This document shows positions 1,995-34,952 of a stretch of DNA of 64,000 nucleotides, piece by piece (positions within the stretch are counted from its first letter, which is position 1; every line of letters begins with the position of its first letter). Source of the stretch: Candidatus Tayloriibacteriota bacterium (GTDB lineage Bacteria > Patescibacteriota > Minisyncoccia > Phycocordibacterales > PALSA-1337). Both the position numbers and the translations under genes were made by a program. The notes under the pieces are model-generated. The model searched no databases. It was not told where the DNA came from and saw only the letters and a program-made list of their open reading frames with translations. The stretch lies in contig PLXZ01000004.1 in assembly GCA_003151615.1 (NCBI GenBank), positions 239,441 to 303,440 of the forward strand, in the 5' to 3' direction.

Positions 1995-3776
1995 TTGTCC
2001 GCATTTTCAAAAAAATACGCCAAAAAACAAAAGCATAACCGGGAAATAAATCCCGACGAGATTTTCATGGACTCGAAAAATATCTCGGATTTCGACACGG
2101 ACCAGTTCGAGGGGCGCCTCGAAAAACCGATCTCGACTTTTGCCATGCTCGGCATCGGGATTTTTTTTGCGCTGATTGTCCTGGTGTTCATGTCGAAGCT
2201 GACCATGCTTCAGGTTGTTCATGCCGGGGAATACACAACGCTCAGCGAAAACAATACCCTCCGGTCGACGCCGATTTTTGCCGCGCGCGGCGTGATATAT
2301 GACAGAAATGGGGTGGAGCTGGCGTGGAATGCTCCGTCAATTCCGGCAACGGCCACATCAACCGCATCGAGTTCGTCCGCGGACATAGACGCGTCCGGCG
2401 AATCCGTGCCGACCCGCGAATACACTGATTTGCCCGGATTGTCCCATACCCTCGGCTATGTACAGTATCCGTCAAAGGATTCCAGCGGATTTTATTATCA
2501 GGAAGATTTCGACGGCGTGGCCGGAGCTGAAAAATATTTCAACTCGATTTTGACCGGACAAAACGGACTGAACCTTATTGAGGTCGATGCCCGCGACCAA
2601 GTTCAATCGGAAAGCACGGTCCGTCCGCCGCAGGAGGGGACGAACGTGACTTTGTCCGTCGACTCAAAAGTCCAGAGCGAACTGTATTCAGCCATCGTTG
2701 ACATCGCCGGCAAGAGCGGATTTACCGGCGGCGCGGGAGTGATTATGGATGTTCACACTGGCGAAATTATTGCTGACACCAGCTATCCGGAATACAGTTC
2801 CGAAGCGATGTCTTCGAAAACAAATGCAACGCTTCTGTATTCCTATTTCAACAATCCGAATCATCCGTTTCTTGACCGGGTGACGCAGGGTCTCTACGTA
2901 CCCGGTTCGATCATAAAGCCGTACATGGCGCTGGCGGCCCTCGACGATAATGTCATTTCGCCGACCACAATCATTCAAGGTACGAAATATATTTCAATTC
3001 AAAATCCCTACGATCCGACAAAATCGACGATTTTCAACGACTGGCAGGTGCAGGGTCCCGAGGACATGTACAAGGCCATCGCCGAATCTTCCGACGTTTA
3101 TTTTTATGAAATCGGCGGCGGATACAAAAATCAGAAAGGCCTTGGCATCACCAAAATAGACAAATATATTCCGATGTTCGGCTTCGGTGCGCCTGTTGCC
3201 GCGAATACCGACGGTTTGCCCGACACCGACAGGGAAGGTTCTTTTTTTGCGAGTGCATCCGGCACCATCCCTTCGCCCGCATGGAAGGCCGCCACATTTG
3301 GCGGTGAACAATGGTATTTGGGAGACACGTATCACACTTCCATCGGCCAATACGGCTATCAGGTTACGCCTATTCAGGCAGTGCGCGGCATGGCATCGAT
3401 TGCCAATGGCGGAACAGTTTTGAATCCGACTATTATCAAAGGCGATCAAGGAACGATTGCGCAGACGGTTCCGATTCCGGCCGCCGATTTCCAGGTGGTG
3501 CGCGATGGCATGCGGCAGGGTGCCGAATCGGGCGTGACCGATGCCTTGAACTTGCCATTCGTGCAGGTGGCTTCAAAATCCGGTACGGCCCAATTGGGAG
3601 TCCGGCTTCAATCGGTCAACTCCTGGATTACCGGTTTCTGGCCATACAACAATCCGAAATATGCTTTTGCCATTTTGCTCGACAACGGCCCTTCGACCGA
3701 AACCGTTAACGCAACCAATGCCATGGTCGAGGTTTTGAACTGGATGAATACGAACGCTCCTAGCTACTTCCAATAA
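1995..3776 (+). CDS. mrdA: penicillin-binding protein 2 (class B transpeptidase)
   Basis: SxxK (SIIKP) and KSG/KTG (KSGTAQ) motifs; mreBCD context. Confidence 0.8.
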   Translation: MSAFSKKYAKKQKHNREINPDEIFMDSKNISDFDTDQFEGRLEKPISTFAMLGIGIFFALIVLVFMSKLTMLQVVHAGEYTTLSENNTLRSTPIFAARGVIYDRNGVELAWNAPSIPATATSTASSSSADIDASGESVPTREYTDLPGLSHTLGYVQYPSKDSSGFYYQEDFDGVAGAEKYFNSILTGQNGLNLIEVDARDQVQSESTVRPPQEGTNVTLSVDSKVQSELYSAIVDIAGKSGFTGGAGVIMDVHTGEIIADTSYPEYSSEAMSSKTNATLLYSYFNNPNHPFLDRVTQGLYVPGSIIKPYMALAALDDNVISPTTIIQGTKYISIQNPYDPTKSTIFNDWQVQGPEDMYKAIAESSDVYFYEIGGGYKNQKGLGITKIDKYIPMFGFGAPVAANTDGLPDTDREGSFFASASGTIPSPAWKAATFGGEQWYLGDTYHTSIGQYGYQVTPIQAVRGMASIANGGTVLNPTIIKGDQGTIAQTVPIPAADFQVVRDGMRQGAESGVTDALNLPFVQVASKSGTAQLGVRLQSVNSWITGFWPYNNPKYAFAILLDNGPSTETVNATNAMVEVLNWMNTNAPSYFQ

Positions 3777-3783
3777 TACCTTC

Positions 3784-3880
3784 CACATTCGTATTTCTTC
3801 GAGATACGGAAGTTTTGGGGCTCAAAACTTCCTCACCTCGGACCGTCGTCCTGCGACAGGTCTCTCAGAATACGAATGTG
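3784..3880 (+). repeat. Family-2 structured repeat, copy A (12-bp perfect IR arms CACATTCGTATT/AATACGAATGTG around conserved core)
   Basis: core ...GGGCT-loop hairpin, CCTCACCTC, GGACCGTCGTCC, AGGTCT shared with copies at 19882-19982 and 34172-34282. Confidence 0.6.
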
Positions 3881-3935
3881 TACAGCCTTATTGGAAGTGG
3901 TTGGAACTATGGACTTCCGTGTTTCAAAAATACAT

Positions 3936-4031
3936 CGTCATCATGCAAATGCGAATGCGAAAATCTCGGGTCATGTTTAGAGCCATATTTTGTGCTAAAG
4001 AAATGTTAAATTCGCATTTGCATGATGGTGA
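3936..4031 (+). repeat. Family-1 TIR element copy 1 (~95 bp, 18-bp terminal inverted repeats CATCATGCAAATGCGAAT)
   Basis: near-identical copies at 18592-18688 (same orientation) and 27077-27173 (internal part inverted). Confidence 0.65.
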
Positions 4032-4102
4032 TATTTAGAAGGCATCGATCCGAAGCTCAGCTTTATGTTTTCAAGATCATCTGCTCTCCACAATGGAGCC
4101 GA

Positions 4103-16181: not shown

Positions 16182-17288
16182 ATGCTCGCAATTCTCATTA
16201 TTCTGGTTGTACTTGCGGTCGCTGCCAACATTGTCATGCTGTCGGTTTTTCTGCGCAAAGGGAAGTCGGCTGAAACGCCAAAAGAAGATGCCGGCCTCAA
16301 AATGGTGCTCGACCAGATGAATACAAACATGCACGAGCTTTCGCGGACAGTTGACCGGAAAGTGGGGGATTTGACGAAAACGGTCGATACGAAAATTGAC
16401 CAGTCCTCGCGGAATGTCCAGGAATCGATGCGTTCACAGTTGTCGGAATCGGCGAAGTTGATCCGCGAAGTGACGCAGGGTTTGACGAAGCTCGACGAGA
16501 CGAACCGTCAGGTCGTGTCGTTCGCCGACCAGCTTCAAAATCTACAGGATATTTTGAAAAATCCAAAACATCGCGGTATTTTAGGCGAATACTATTTGGA
16601 GACGCTTTTGAAAAATGTTTTGGCGCCGGGACAATATCAGATGCAGTATGCTTTTAAAAACGGCGAAATCGTCGACGCGGCTGTTTTTGTGAAAGACAAA
16701 ATAATTCCGATCGATTCGAAATTTTCGCTCGAAAATTACAATAAACTGGTCGAGGAAAAGAATCCGGCTGAAAAGGAAAAATTGGAAAAGGCATTTGTCG
16801 GCGATTTGAAACTGCGAATTCAGGAAACAGCAAAATATGTCCGGCCTGCCGAAAATACGATGGAGTTTGCGTTCATGTTCATTCCGCACGAAGCCATTTA
16901 TTACGACCTCCTCGTCAATAAAATCGGCATGGCCGCGGACGAAACCGACAATTTGATCCAGCGCGCCGCGAGTAAATACAAAGTCATCATCGTTTCGCCA
17001 ACCTCATTTTTGGCATATTTGCAGACAGTTCTTCAAGGTCTCAAAGCAATGCAGATTGAAGAAACGGCAAAAGACATCGTCAAGCACGTCAGCCAGCTCG
17101 GCACGCATATGAAAAAATACGAGGAATATCATGTAAAACTGGGCACGTCGCTCGCTACCGTGGTCAATCACTACAATAACTCCGGTAAGGAGCTTAAAAA
17201 GGTGGATAAAGACGTCCTGCGCATCGCCGGCGAGGCTCCGGGTATTGATATCGCCTTGATTGAGAAGCCGGAGGCGGAGGAGGTGTAA
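16182..17288 (+). CDS. rmuC: DNA recombination protein RmuC
   Basis: N-terminal TM, long coiled-coil, RmuC C-terminal region (FMFIPHEAIYYDLL). Confidence 0.75.
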   Translation: MLAILIILVVLAVAANIVMLSVFLRKGKSAETPKEDAGLKMVLDQMNTNMHELSRTVDRKVGDLTKTVDTKIDQSSRNVQESMRSQLSESAKLIREVTQGLTKLDETNRQVVSFADQLQNLQDILKNPKHRGILGEYYLETLLKNVLAPGQYQMQYAFKNGEIVDAAVFVKDKIIPIDSKFSLENYNKLVEEKNPAEKEKLEKAFVGDLKLRIQETAKYVRPAENTMEFAFMFIPHEAIYYDLLVNKIGMAADETDNLIQRAASKYKVIIVSPTSFLAYLQTVLQGLKAMQIEETAKDIVKHVSQLGTHMKKYEEYHVKLGTSLATVVNHYNNSGKELKKVDKDVLRIAGEAPGIDIALIEKPEAEEV

Positions 17289-18552: not shown

Positions 18553-18591
18553 TTGCTTGGCACGTTGAGGCTGTCGATACTCTTTTTCTTT

Positions 18592-18688
18592 CACCATCAT
18601 GCAAATGCGAATGCGAAAATACAGGGTCATATTTAGAGCCATATTTTATACTAAAGAAATGTTAAATTCGCATTTGCATGATGGTGAT
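18592..18688 (+). repeat. Family-1 TIR element copy 2
   Basis: CACCATCATGCAAATGCGAAT...ATTCGCATTTGCATGATGGTG; internal sequence ~90% identical to copy 1. Confidence 0.65.
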
Positions 18689-18747
18689 GTAAAAAGGCGA
18701 GGCTCTGTCCTGAAGTTTTGCAAATCCTCAATAATCATCGATAGGCC

Positions 18748-32964: not shown

Positions 32965-34143
32965 CTATTCGTGCTGAAGGCCGATTTCCAGGATAACACG
33001 CGCTATTTCACGGGCTGAATCGGTCCGGGCGAAGTTTTTGGCCCCCCGTATCATCTTCTCCTGCAAGGCATGATTGCCCATGATTTTGTCAATTTCAGCA
33101 ATCAATATGTGAGACGTCATATTGTGTTCCTCAATGACCGAGCAGGCTCCGGAACGCGCGTATGAGAAAGCATTTTCAGTTTGGTCGTGGCTGATTGCGG
33201 TATTGAGAGGTATGAGGATTGAAGGCTTGCCCCACGCCGCAATTTCAAAAATGGAAGAACCGGCGCGCGATACGACGATGCTTGCGGCGCCCGCGGCCAT
33301 GCGCATGGTGAGGTCGTTCAAATAATCAATCGGTTTATAGCGTCCGGCATCCGGGTTATCCTTCATGATACTCGAGAGGACGGTGCTGACGTCCTGAAAG
33401 TTTTTTCTTCCGGTCTGATGGATTATCTGGTAGCGTTTTACCAATTCAGGAACTGCATCCGTGACTACGTCATTGATGAACTGCGAACCTTGCGATCCGC
33501 CGATTATGAAAACGATGGGCAGGTTTTCTTCAAGATGAAGATATTCTTTCGCGCCGTTTGACAGCGGCGTGAGAACTTCCTTGCGCACCGGATTGCCGGT
33601 GTAGGCGATTTTGCTTTTGCCGAAGTTGGGGTCTTTTTTGTTCTTGATTTTTGCCTTTGTCCCGAGCATTTTTTCAAAATAATCGGCGGCCGAAGGATAT
33701 GAAACGGCAACGCGAACCGCAAATTTCGCGGCCCATTTGTTGACGCGTCCCGGCTGGCTGTCGGATTCGTGGATTACGACTGGAATTCGCAGCAGTCGCG
33801 CCGCCAGAAGTCCCGGAAAGCTGGCGTAGCCTCCTTTTCCAAAGACGACGTCCGGATATGTGCCAAACATGGAAAATACCGCCGATATGATTCCGTAGCC
33901 TGTTTTAAAGACGTCGGTGATGTTGAGAAGCGAAAAATAGCGGCGCATTTTTCCCGCCGGCACGCGGATGAATTCTATTTCATTGTCAAAGAGCGCGCGC
34001 GGATTGTAGCGCGACGGCGCCATATAAAAAAGTTCCGGATTGAGGATTTTCCGGTCCTTCGCTTCTTCCTGCACGGCTTCCGCCACTGCAATGATCGGAT
34101 AGAAATGTCCGCCCGAACCGCCGCCCGTTAATACTATTTTCAT
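32965..34143 (-). CDS. murG: undecaprenyldiphospho-muramoylpentapeptide beta-N-acetylglucosaminyltransferase MurG
   Basis: GGSGGHFYP N-terminal motif, GT-B fold length; adjacent to ftsW. Confidence 0.9.
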   Translation of the reverse strand: MKIVLTGGGSGGHFYPIIAVAEAVQEEAKDRKILNPELFYMAPSRYNPRALFDNEIEFIRVPAGKMRRYFSLLNITDVFKTGYGIISAVFSMFGTYPDVVFGKGGYASFPGLLAARLLRIPVVIHESDSQPGRVNKWAAKFAVRVAVSYPSAADYFEKMLGTKAKIKNKKDPNFGKSKIAYTGNPVRKEVLTPLSNGAKEYLHLEENLPIVFIIGGSQGSQFINDVVTDAVPELVKRYQIIHQTGRKNFQDVSTVLSSIMKDNPDAGRYKPIDYLNDLTMRMAAGAASIVVSRAGSSIFEIAAWGKPSILIPLNTAISHDQTENAFSYARSGACSVIEEHNMTSHILIAEIDKIMGNHALQEKMIRGAKNFARTDSAREIARVILEIGLQHE

Positions 34144-34171
34144 GGGGATGATTATAGCATAAACTCCATTA

Positions 34172-34282
34172 CCCCCACGATATTGTTGTTATGCAAGACA
34201 CGGAAATTTGAGGGCTTCAAATTTCCTCCTCTACGGACCGTCGTCCTCCGAGAGGTCTTGTATAACAACAATATCGTGGGGG
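34172..34282 (+). repeat. Family-2 structured repeat, copy C (21+6-bp IR arms CCCCCACGATATTGTTGTTAT...ATAACAACAATATCGTGGGGG)
   Basis: core with 10-bp hairpin (loop GGGCT), CCTCCTCT, GGACCGTCGTCC, GAGGTCT. Confidence 0.6.
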
Positions 34283-34337
34283 TGCTAAAGATTGACATCT
34301 GTAAAAAGCAAAACCCCACAAATAAATGCAGGGTTTG

Positions 34338-34649
34338 CTATTGAAAGAGTTGGAGGATTAAATCAAAGCTATCGTCTGGCGCTGTAATGTTTCTTTGAAT
34401 TTTACGACACTCGATACACTTGTGAACTATCATCCAACCTTTCTTTGAGTGACGTTCTATGCGTATCGGTTCCATCAAATTACGGCATGTTTCCATTCGA
34501 TCGCCAGGCACAATATCTACATGTTTACACCATAGACAATGCGGGCAATGGTTACGGAAACTTCCGTTTGAAAGTGATTCCACAAACATAGAACATTTCT
34601 CACATGTAAAGGCATCGTTGCCTTTACCATAGAAATTTTTTCGCTTCAT
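34338..34649 (-). CDS. RNHCP domain protein (Cys-rich zinc-finger-like)
   Basis: literal RNHCPHC motif plus multiple CxxC pairs. Confidence 0.55.
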   Translation of the reverse strand: MKRKNFYGKGNDAFTCEKCSMFVESLSNGSFRNHCPHCLWCKHVDIVPGDRMETCRNLMEPIRIERHSKKGWMIVHKCIECRKIQRNITAPDDSFDLILQLFQ

Positions 34650-34952
34650 CCTGCGTAAGCAGGGTTCGGTTTAATCTTAAAAGCAGGCTTGAGCAAAAGT
34701 AGTTACAACATTCATCGCCAAAGCGATTACTTCCAGTTCCTACTTCATTTCCAAAAAGGAAAATCCGAGTGGGGTTTATGAATTTGTTCCCACCACAGTC
34801 CATCGCCATTACACGATTGGTCACCGGTTTAGTGTCTTTTGCTCTCACTGCACTCTGTTACCAGAGGCATCCTCCCCTTACAGGATTAGCGATGTAAATG
34901 AACAGTTTAATAATACAATATTAGATATACTATGTCAAATAGGAATCAAATT

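Follow-up and report, generated by a model that had tools for sequence, protein, structure and literature searches.

Branched elements enclosed in copy-specific palindromes at gene boundaries in Paceibacteria

The stretch of DNA analysed in the present study (the window) comprises 64 kb from a Candidatus Tayloriibacteriota bacterium, about 11% of its 563-kb metagenome contig, ENA ERZ27254241 k141_1990104, and it carries a dispersed intergenic repeat, family 2, in which a branched core is closed by an inverted repeat that differs from copy to copy. The best reading of our data is that the Paceibacteria, within the Candidate Phyla Radiation (CPR), possess in family 2 a superfamily of structured intergenic elements which has so far gone undescribed and which resembles the repetitive extragenic palindromic (REP) sequences and REPINs. 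Our sample consists of 18 copies, 4 in the window and 14 in related metagenome contigs, whose loci are numbered L122-L136, L163 and L164; the sources are peat and soil sites, among them those of the JGI samples with contigs Ga0302319, Ga0302281 and Ga0302280. The best named homologues of DnaB, PBP2 and MurG are from Candidatus Taylorbacteria, Paceibacterota and Patescibacteria. To our knowledge, genomes of CPR/Patescibacteria are tiny, with few repeats and few non-coding elements described, and our literature search turned up no report of elements like family 2 from this group. A dispersed and strongly selected element in housekeeping regions would point to unrecognised CPR biology, be it transcript-boundary control, a partnership of protein and nucleic acid, or a long-lived, domesticated mobile element.

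Fold of the core and its copies

Each copy of family 2 forms a three-way junction, which is made up of the helix P1, a 10-bp A/T-rich hairpin (HP1) with a conserved loop of 4-5 nt, and a short helix P3 capped by a 4-bp hairpin (HP2), and the copy-specific inverted repeat closes the unit at a length of 97-125 nt. The first-pass annotation had placed three copies in the window, all intergenic and with the core on the plus strand, and these are found as claimed (cores of copies A, B and C at 3801-3864, 19900-19964 and 34195-34259); the flanking genes are those of PBP2, DnaB and MurG, together with GreA, RecR and RNHCP, the last three of which are supported by Pfam. In these copies the stem of HP1 varies yet stays complementary around a constant GGGCT loop, the linker CCTCACCTC or CCTCCTCT follows HP1, HP2 reads GGAC-CGTC-GTCC, or AGAC-CGTC-GTCT in copy B, and AGGTCT is present at the 3′ end of the core, all as had been described. 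Helix P3, which pairs columns 35-37 with columns 56-58 of our alignment, was absent from that description, and it is this helix that makes the core a branched one.

The structure was tested on an alignment of nine cores of the GGGCT type (A4), in which 22 pairs were scored in columns 1-5/61-65 (P1), 8-17/23-32 (HP1), 41-44/49-52 (HP2) and the P3 columns given above. On the plus strand 95.5% of the cells are paired, and both-sided changes occur in 14 of the 22 core pairs (29 cells), which was reached by none of 500 column shuffles. When the 3′ partners were slid by 1-3 columns, at most 2 pairs had both-sided changes, compared with 14 in the correct register, and the 29 double changes on this strand stand against one one-sided change. 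RNAalifold, run without an imposed structure, returned the same fold as the one tested. Moreover, whole units fold with z-scores of -6.5 to -12.5 relative to dinucleotide shuffles, on either strand, and a 20-nt core pattern has more matches than in any of 100 shuffles. The compensatory pattern proposed from the three original copies is thus upheld by RNAalifold and pair counts, and the fold is kept by compensatory changes. An alternative helix between GACC and GGTC, which had also been proposed, is formable in 94% of the cells but shows no compensatory change, and in copies I and J, where HP2 is mutated, it is the HP2 partner that compensates and not GGTC.

As to the strand, the plus strand had been taken as the RNA strand; the orientation of the core was correctly given, but the complement is the better RNA fold. 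In the reverse complement of the alignment (A5) 99.0% of cells are paired, P3 gains an invariant U.G pair, and the alifold energy is -24.9 kcal/mol compared with -19.3 kcal/mol for the plus strand. Eight of the nine non-Watson-Crick cells on the plus strand are A.C, that is, G.U on the complement. If one strand matters more, it would be the complement of the described strand, and this is suggestive only, because perhaps 5-6 independent events lie behind the difference.

Copies outside the window were obtained by two routes. A specific pattern scan of metagenomes gave three more distinct copies, D (L122/L124), E (L123) and F (L126), and eleven more (H to R) came from the loci around the DnaB, PBP2 and MurG homologues of relatives, which were searched with R1, a covariance model based on six cores. 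The window itself contains a fourth, divergent copy, G (unit 21448-21567, core 21477-21540, plus strand), which was found by an inverted-repeat scan and by R1 with 25.7 bits and E = 8e-6 (filters off), a rough value owing to the shortened calibration of the model. Its architecture is the same as that of the other copies with a different sequence, HP1 being AGAGATTTCT-TGCT-AGAAATCTCT, the linker TCGTCCTC, HP2 GACGC-CTGC-GCGTC and the 3′ end TGCGGATGTCTT. By the loop of HP1 the copies fall into three subtypes (GGGCT, TGCT/TACT and TGTT); all three are Y-shaped, with CCTC in the linker that follows HP1 and a TnCG motif behind HP2. Unrelated loci can hold the same subtype, as B and F, D and I, and C/E and J do. 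In a MAFFT alignment of the three subtypes (A6) the HP2 columns are out of register between subtypes, hence no single model was used for all. Loci from a contig scan with the 16-base pattern GACCGTCGTC-N7-AGGTCT served as negative control; the 120 matches of this pattern in high-GC genomes are chance matches and include no true copy.

Copy C, which scores 91.7 bits with the covariance model and is also supported by pair counts and alifold, lies on the plus strand with its left arm ACCCCCACGATATTGTTGTTATGC at 34171-34194 and its right arm at 34260-34283; the two arms form 23 Watson-Crick pairs and one G.T pair, with a longest perfect run of 22, and the right arm ends 28 nt before the ATG of murG, which is on the minus strand. 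Within its core, P1 pairs 34195-34199 with 34255-34259, HP1 pairs 34202-34211 with 34217-34226 around the GGGCT loop at 34212-34216, P3 pairs 34229-34231 with 34250-34252, and HP2 pairs 34235-34238 with 34243-34246 around a CGTC loop. In copy A (plus strand; core 86.8 bits) an inner left arm CACATTCGTATT (3784-3795) and an inner right arm AATACGAATGTG (3869-3880) are surrounded by an outer left arm ACTTCCAATAA (3766-3776), which is identical with the last codons (YFQ) and the stop codon of PBP2, and an outer right arm TTATTGGAAGT (3888-3898), an inverted match of this gene end. The left arm of copy B, AATCGGTGCACATGCAT (19878-19894, plus strand), abuts the extended -10 box of recR, TGCTATACT, on the minus strand; the core scores 88.3 bits and the right arm is ATGCATGTGCACCGATT (19970-19986). 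Copy G, of a divergent subfamily, has arms at 21450-21471 and 21546-21567 (22 bp, perfect) and lies upstream of the dnaB promoter. Apart from these four copies, positions 27668-27720 hold AGACACGGAA...GGGCT...AGTCT, which resembles the ends and loop of a family-2 core without the hairpins, is unscored by the covariance model and may be a relic or a chance match.

Gene boundaries and conservation at shared loci

Family-2 copies occur only at gene boundaries, either after stop codons, upstream of the promoters of leaderless genes, or in place of a convergent bidirectional terminator; each of the 18 is bounded on one side by the 3′ end of a gene and on the other by the next promoter or by the 3′ end of a convergent gene. 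Three of these positions are shared between genomes: upstream of murG (C in the window, E in L123, O in L163), just after the PBP2 stop codon (A in the window, H in L135), and upstream of the dnaB promoter (G in the window, K at 9837-9900 of L127, N at 9844-9898 of L130, Q at 19774-19837 of L163). At these loci the cores are far better conserved than fourfold sites of the adjoining genes in the same genomes: 94% identity for C/E versus 52% in MurG, 88% for G/K versus 54% in DnaB, and 78% for A/H versus 42% in PBP2, and the 28-nt promoter spacer beside C and E is essentially unalignable. These comparisons show that the core is under purifying selection or was recently replaced, and that it is not a decaying insertion. 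The earlier proposal of a selected single-strand structure rather than a decaying copy agrees with this conservation and with the 14 of 22 covarying pairs.

Presence of the element varies between close relatives: the window genome and L122, L123, L126, L127, L130, L135, L163 and L164 have it, whereas L129, L131-L134 and L136 do not. In the convergent L27/L9 spacer three different subtypes are found in L127, L130 and L164, in both orientations, and a truncated remnant in L163; L129 and L131-L133 have ordinary bidirectional terminators here, and the window has a repeat of another type (family 1, described below) and a terminator. The dnaB-recR spacer is element-free and only 3-30 nt long in five relatives, so that copy B with its arms is a gain of about 110 nt. 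At the PBP2 locus, L136 has a small stop-codon hairpin, TTCCAGTA-A-TACTGGAA, without the element, which fits an insertion, in the window and in L135, at the apex of a pre-existing hairpin. In L164 the copies at murG and dnaB are missing, with 13 and 7 nt of the gene-proximal arm kept. Close to murG in the window, the ftsW-RNHCP spacer (34650-34952, minus strand) contains about 300 nt of non-coding sequence with a promoter-like site TTGACA...TATTAT; its counterpart in L163 has the family-2 copy P just after ftsW.

Two further candidate regularities were rejected. Copies are co-oriented in the window (4 of 4) and in L130 (3 of 3), L127 and L135 have both orientations, GC skew is weak, and a replication-strand bias is not significant. 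A small open reading frame across the core fails, since the possible TTG starts do not keep one frame with the conserved loop and are lacking in one copy. Most copies have no -10-like box in the 150 nt upstream of them, whichever strand is taken, and there is no consistent promoter of their own.

Closing arms and their maintenance

In an unbiased inverted-repeat scan of the window, the arms of the copies are among the longest repeats (I4, I5 and I6, with copy G as I2), and each copy found later has its own palindrome as well, with longest perfect arm runs of 6-29 bp, mostly at least 9 bp. The arms had been described as perfect, copy-specific and 12, 12 and 21+6 bp long; perfect and copy-specific they are, but the arm of copy B is 17 bp (19878-19894/19970-19986) and not 12. 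In copy A the second, outer arm pair of 11 bp (3766-3776/3888-3898) overlaps the last codons and the stop of PBP2.

The arms drift at about the neutral rate, with complementarity kept within each genome. At shared loci the identity of arms is 50-62% in the clearest pairs (C/E, C/O and A/H) and at background in other pairs, where background means 37% ± 8% for unrelated arms with the same aligner. Within genomes, arm pairs comprise 450 Watson-Crick, 9 G.T and 14 A.C pairs, without strand asymmetry. The first-pass annotation had seen in the arms a possible basal stem; that they are the basal stem of an RNA is doubtful, since practically all of their pairs are of the Watson-Crick type and the strands do not differ, which argues for maintenance at the DNA level and not for compensation at the RNA level. 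Moreover, neutral drift together with perfect Watson-Crick pairing makes stepwise RNA compensation hard, and it fits hairpin-templated template switching, a process which creates, homogenises and expands hairpin arms (PMC8794818, PMC13100816).

Towards their outer ends the arms match ancestral flanking sequence, namely the PBP2 stop region in copy A and the CTTATAAAC motif in copy G. The C-terminus of PBP2, SYFQ or QYFQ, is conserved in homologues, and the outer left arm of copy A is its YFQ-stop end; the outer repeat of copy G copies the CTTATAAAC motif that precedes the dnaB promoter in relatives, including element-free ones. This DnaA-box-like motif lies at 21401-21411 in the window and also upstream of the dnaB promoter in L129, L131, L132 and L164, and its inverted copy at 21586-21596 constitutes the outer repeat around copy G. 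Elsewhere in the sequence of the window and the related loci no match to any arm was found beyond its own locus, and the arms as captured foreign or other-locus sequence were rejected on this ground. Dispersal of arms together with the core was rejected as well: the CATGCAT common to B and F carries no weight, since chance alone should produce an estimated 8 or so 7-mers of this kind over all pairs.

The arms are a clean natural case in which 20-30 bp change at about the neutral rate and still remain perfectly complementary, and they allow a test of whether the 'compensatory' evolution of hairpins reflects template switching at the DNA level rather than selection on RNA. They are also a warning that covariation statistics alone are no proof of RNA function.

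Very long perfect or near-perfect hairpins without the core are also found at gene ends of the window (48229-48282, 48039-48081 and 27172-27211), with stems of 17-25 bp and loops of 4-9 nt, and long perfect palindromes seem to characterise this genome as a whole and not only family 2. An RmuC-family gene (16182-17288) is conserved near this region in all relatives. RmuC of Escherichia coli is linked to inversions at short inverted repeats, and the protein may matter in a palindrome-rich genome.

Interpretation, rival explanations and known families

We tentatively favour, at somewhat less than an even chance, a joint model in which the Y-shaped core is selected and recognised, the palindrome is maintained and extended by template switching, and the unit acts at transcript boundaries. 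Under this model, hairpin-templated template switching during replication would keep the arms perfect and extend them into flanking DNA, and a mutation in one arm would be either erased or copied into the other. The element would reach new sites rarely, favouring the apex of existing hairpins; once resident, it would be a transcript-boundary structure that blocks read-through or exonucleases, and its Y-shaped core may be a binding platform for a factor. The data fit an element that is old, mostly vertically inherited, occasionally gained or lost, and kept by selection.

Several points weigh against this model. The sample of 18 copies is small and several of them are non-independent orthologues, and the conservation of loop and junction bases is not explained by a plain hairpin role. 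Copies of the divergent subtypes score 19-45 bits, mostly 19-27, and unrelated control loci which share the pattern reach 20-22, so that for most divergent copies membership rests on architecture, arms and shared locus. Orientation is mixed; in a tally of gene tables the complement is the sense strand for flanking transcription at 4 loci (B, C/E/O, G/K/N/Q, I) and the antisense strand at 5 (A/H, D, F, M, P), a split that sits poorly with a strand-specific role as RNA. Copies A, C and O, and likewise P, have no U-tract after the stem, and not all copies are classical intrinsic terminators; copy C moreover follows a separate canonical terminator (34311-34336), the sole terminator called around it. 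The sites in L136 and L164 could be ancestral flank, or else products of precise or partial deletion. In the window and the gene tables of 18 related loci there is no mobilising enzyme, and target-site duplication is absent. The role at transcript boundaries is proposed from sequence and genomic position.

Among the alternatives, an active non-autonomous element, of the miniature inverted-repeat transposable element (MITE) or REPIN type, is unlikely but should be considered first. Such an element would be mobilised in trans as folded single-stranded DNA, e.g. by a HUH/RAYT-like enzyme with its gene elsewhere, and insert at hairpin apices, and the conservation of its core would reflect the needs of transposase recognition. 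It accounts for a multicopy family whose subtypes recur at unrelated loci and whose presence differs among close relatives, for the exchange of subtypes and orientations in the L27/L9 spacer, and for the location of all four window copies on the strand of positive GC skew, and covariation by Watson-Crick pairs only fits a DNA fold. However, conservation between copies of one locus far exceeds the neutral level, which is unexpected for inert insertions, and the window-genome copies are only 71-78% identical over the compared repeat tracts, so that there was no recent burst. No target-site duplication is seen when the sequences flanking A, B, C, E and H are compared with empty or related sites, and the only conserved terminal repeat common to copies is the 5-bp AGAC/GTCT of P1, outside which the sequence is copy-specific; the terminal inverted repeats and duplications of an insertion sequence or MITE are lacking. 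No transposase, reverse transcriptase or recombinase is encoded among the 60 window proteins, all from housekeeping genes, or in the related loci. No copies were found in viral contigs, where one degenerate architecture pattern had 0 matches and a short pattern 26 chance matches, none with the fold.

This alternative and the small RNA discussed below overlap with the joint model. On a bolder reading, which we likewise regard as improbable, family 2 would be a new class of host-selected module in CPR bacteria whose complement-strand Y-shaped RNA exposes a GAGG purine stretch at the junction, is presented on or cut from the long duplex, and is recognised by a dedicated protein or the ribosome, with palindromes that are regenerated by hairpin-templated conversion and drift neutrally while their pairing is kept.

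A family of small RNA genes, in which a Y-shaped RNA of the complement strand is freed from the duplex by RNase III and acts in trans, is rather unlikely. Perfect duplexes of 20-30 bp are substrates of the RNase III type, loops and junction bases are conserved, and to the higher pairing and lower alifold energy of the complement can be added an excess of G.U cells on this strand (8 versus 1), among them the column pair 8/32, which shows G-C, G.U and A-U as expected for a change via a G.U intermediate. However, this excess represents about 5-6 independent events, and the arms are almost free of G.U and have no strand asymmetry. Most copies, in addition, are without the upstream -10-like box, and the complement is antisense to flanking transcription at about half of the loci, where many copies would stay untranscribed.

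It is less probable still that the copies are simply unusually long bidirectional terminators, with the shared core as a historical passenger. The restriction of copies to gene ends would be explained, as would copies J, R, L and F, whose arms or flanks are A-rich on the 5′ side and T-rich on the 3′ side like those of bidirectional terminators and which replace canonical terminators of the relatives, and long core-less hairpin terminators do exist in the window, e.g. at 48229-48282 and 27172-27211. A passenger, however, would not stay 78-94% identical when neutral sites have fallen to 42-54%, four copies (A, C, O and P) lack the U-tract, copy C lies downstream of a separate canonical terminator, and B and G are located where relatives need none, the spacers being 3-30 nt long or the genes co-oriented with an adjacent promoter.

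Finally, that the plus strand is an RNA whose CCUCACCUC linker mimics an anti-Shine-Dalgarno sequence and pairs with Shine-Dalgarno (SD) regions of neighbouring genes, as the first-pass annotation had suggested, is very hard to believe, even if no unpaired motif is as widely conserved over the three subtypes as the pyrimidine linker with its CCTC: SD-like motifs occur in 5 of 64 genes and the neighbours offer none, the linker is partly paired in P3, and the plus strand is the poorer RNA fold. In at least 10 window genes the end of an extended -10 box (TGnTAnAAT) lies 6-7 nt ahead of the ATG, a sign that leaderless mRNAs may be widespread in this genome, and the anti-SD idea loses its basis because SD sequences are nearly unused and many genes look leaderless, including recR and murG beside copies B and C. 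Among the gene starts considered are those at 19861, 21375, 24200, 30762, 32292, 34143 and 36627.

Comparison with known families gave no direct match. With Rfam 15 the whole window yields one tRNA only at the gathering threshold, positions 34100-34350 give noise of 12-23 bits at E <= 10 compared with cut-offs of 33-119, and small ribozyme families have no match at E <= 10, nor was the hammerhead core CUGAUGA seen by eye. Retron non-coding RNAs of 150-200 nt are flanked by a1/a2 repeats and accompanied by an adjacent reverse-transcriptase gene; family-2 units are only 97-125 nt and their neighbours are PBP2, greA, recR, dnaB, murG and RNHCP, with no reverse transcriptase adjacent. Like integron attC sites, which are recognised as folded single strands, family 2 has conserved structure with variable sequence, but attC sites have conserved outer R boxes (RYYYAAC/GTTRRRY), a variable centre and cassette arrays beside an integrase, and family 2 is the reverse, with copy-specific outer ends, copies dispersed among housekeeping genes and no integrase.

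The likeness to REP sequences and REPINs is closer. These are extragenic repeats, short and structured, which number some tens per genome and are accompanied by RAYT transposases (PMC3116915, PMC3337134); roles in termination or in the stability of mRNA have been suggested for them, and one study reports that they are inherited mostly vertically and persist in lineages for millions of years (10.1101/2022.05.22.493013). Family 2 shares with them extragenic structured repeats with long hairpins, located at gene ends in both orientations, and persistence at shared loci. It differs in that REPIN arms are conserved REP sequences with a GTAG tag, whereas family-2 arms are unique to each copy without common sequence, the conserved part is a branched 65-nt centre, GTAG is absent, and the host is a CPR bacterium. 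A RAYT (a Y1 transposase of the IS200/IS605 type) was found neither in the 60 proteins of the window nor in the 18 related-locus gene tables. The closest published parallel comes from A. variabilis and H. neapolitanus, in which REP dimers are enclosed by long palindromes that do not occur without the dimers (PMC3733652). CGTC-tagged REPs in that study have stems of 8-9 bp starting with A/T pairs, loops of 4-5 nt and short unpaired tails, the tag is sometimes CCTC, and no dedicated transposase is known for them (PMC3733652). However, the palindromes of Di Nocera et al. (2013) fit a consensus and are part of the repeat (PMC3733652), while those of family 2 have no sequence in common, and CGTC-tagged REPs are simple stem-loops or dimers, as opposed to a three-way junction in which CGTC occurs only as the HP2 loop and not as a terminal tag.

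With template-switch hairpins, family 2 shares perfect stems, one-step 'compensatory' changes of several bases, homogenisation of arms and outward expansion; the studies in question treat a mutational process in rRNA, miRNA and promoter repeats, and not a dispersed family with a conserved structured centre (PMC8794818, PMC13100816). Bacterial MITEs such as Correia, ERIC and RUP resemble family 2 in being small, non-coding, intergenic and multicopy, with presence that varies between strains, but they have conserved terminal inverted repeats and target-site duplications, and family 2 has neither. The window does contain a repeat which looks like a classical MITE, i.e. family 1 (3934-4032, 18582-18696 and 27064-27184; about 95-115 nt), with conserved terminal inverted repeats of 31-34 nt (CTTTTTCTTTCAyCATCATGCAAATGCGAAT) and 53 nt between them. 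One family-1 copy is 54 nt from copy A, and another overlaps a perfect 18-bp terminator hairpin (27172-27211).

Two other units, at 21677-21793 (minus strand) and 46757-46873 (plus strand), each contain an inverted repeat of 18 bp whose arms are separated by 81 nt; one unit has it perfect, and in the other the complementarity is 94%. The first arm is part of a tRNA-like sequence with sub-threshold Rfam matches to mascRNA, tRNA-Sec and Tymovirus tRNA-like families, for which ARAGORN returned nothing, the canonical tRNA calls in the 64 kb numbering one; a promoter-like site TTGACn-17-TAnnnT and then the inverted arm copy follow.

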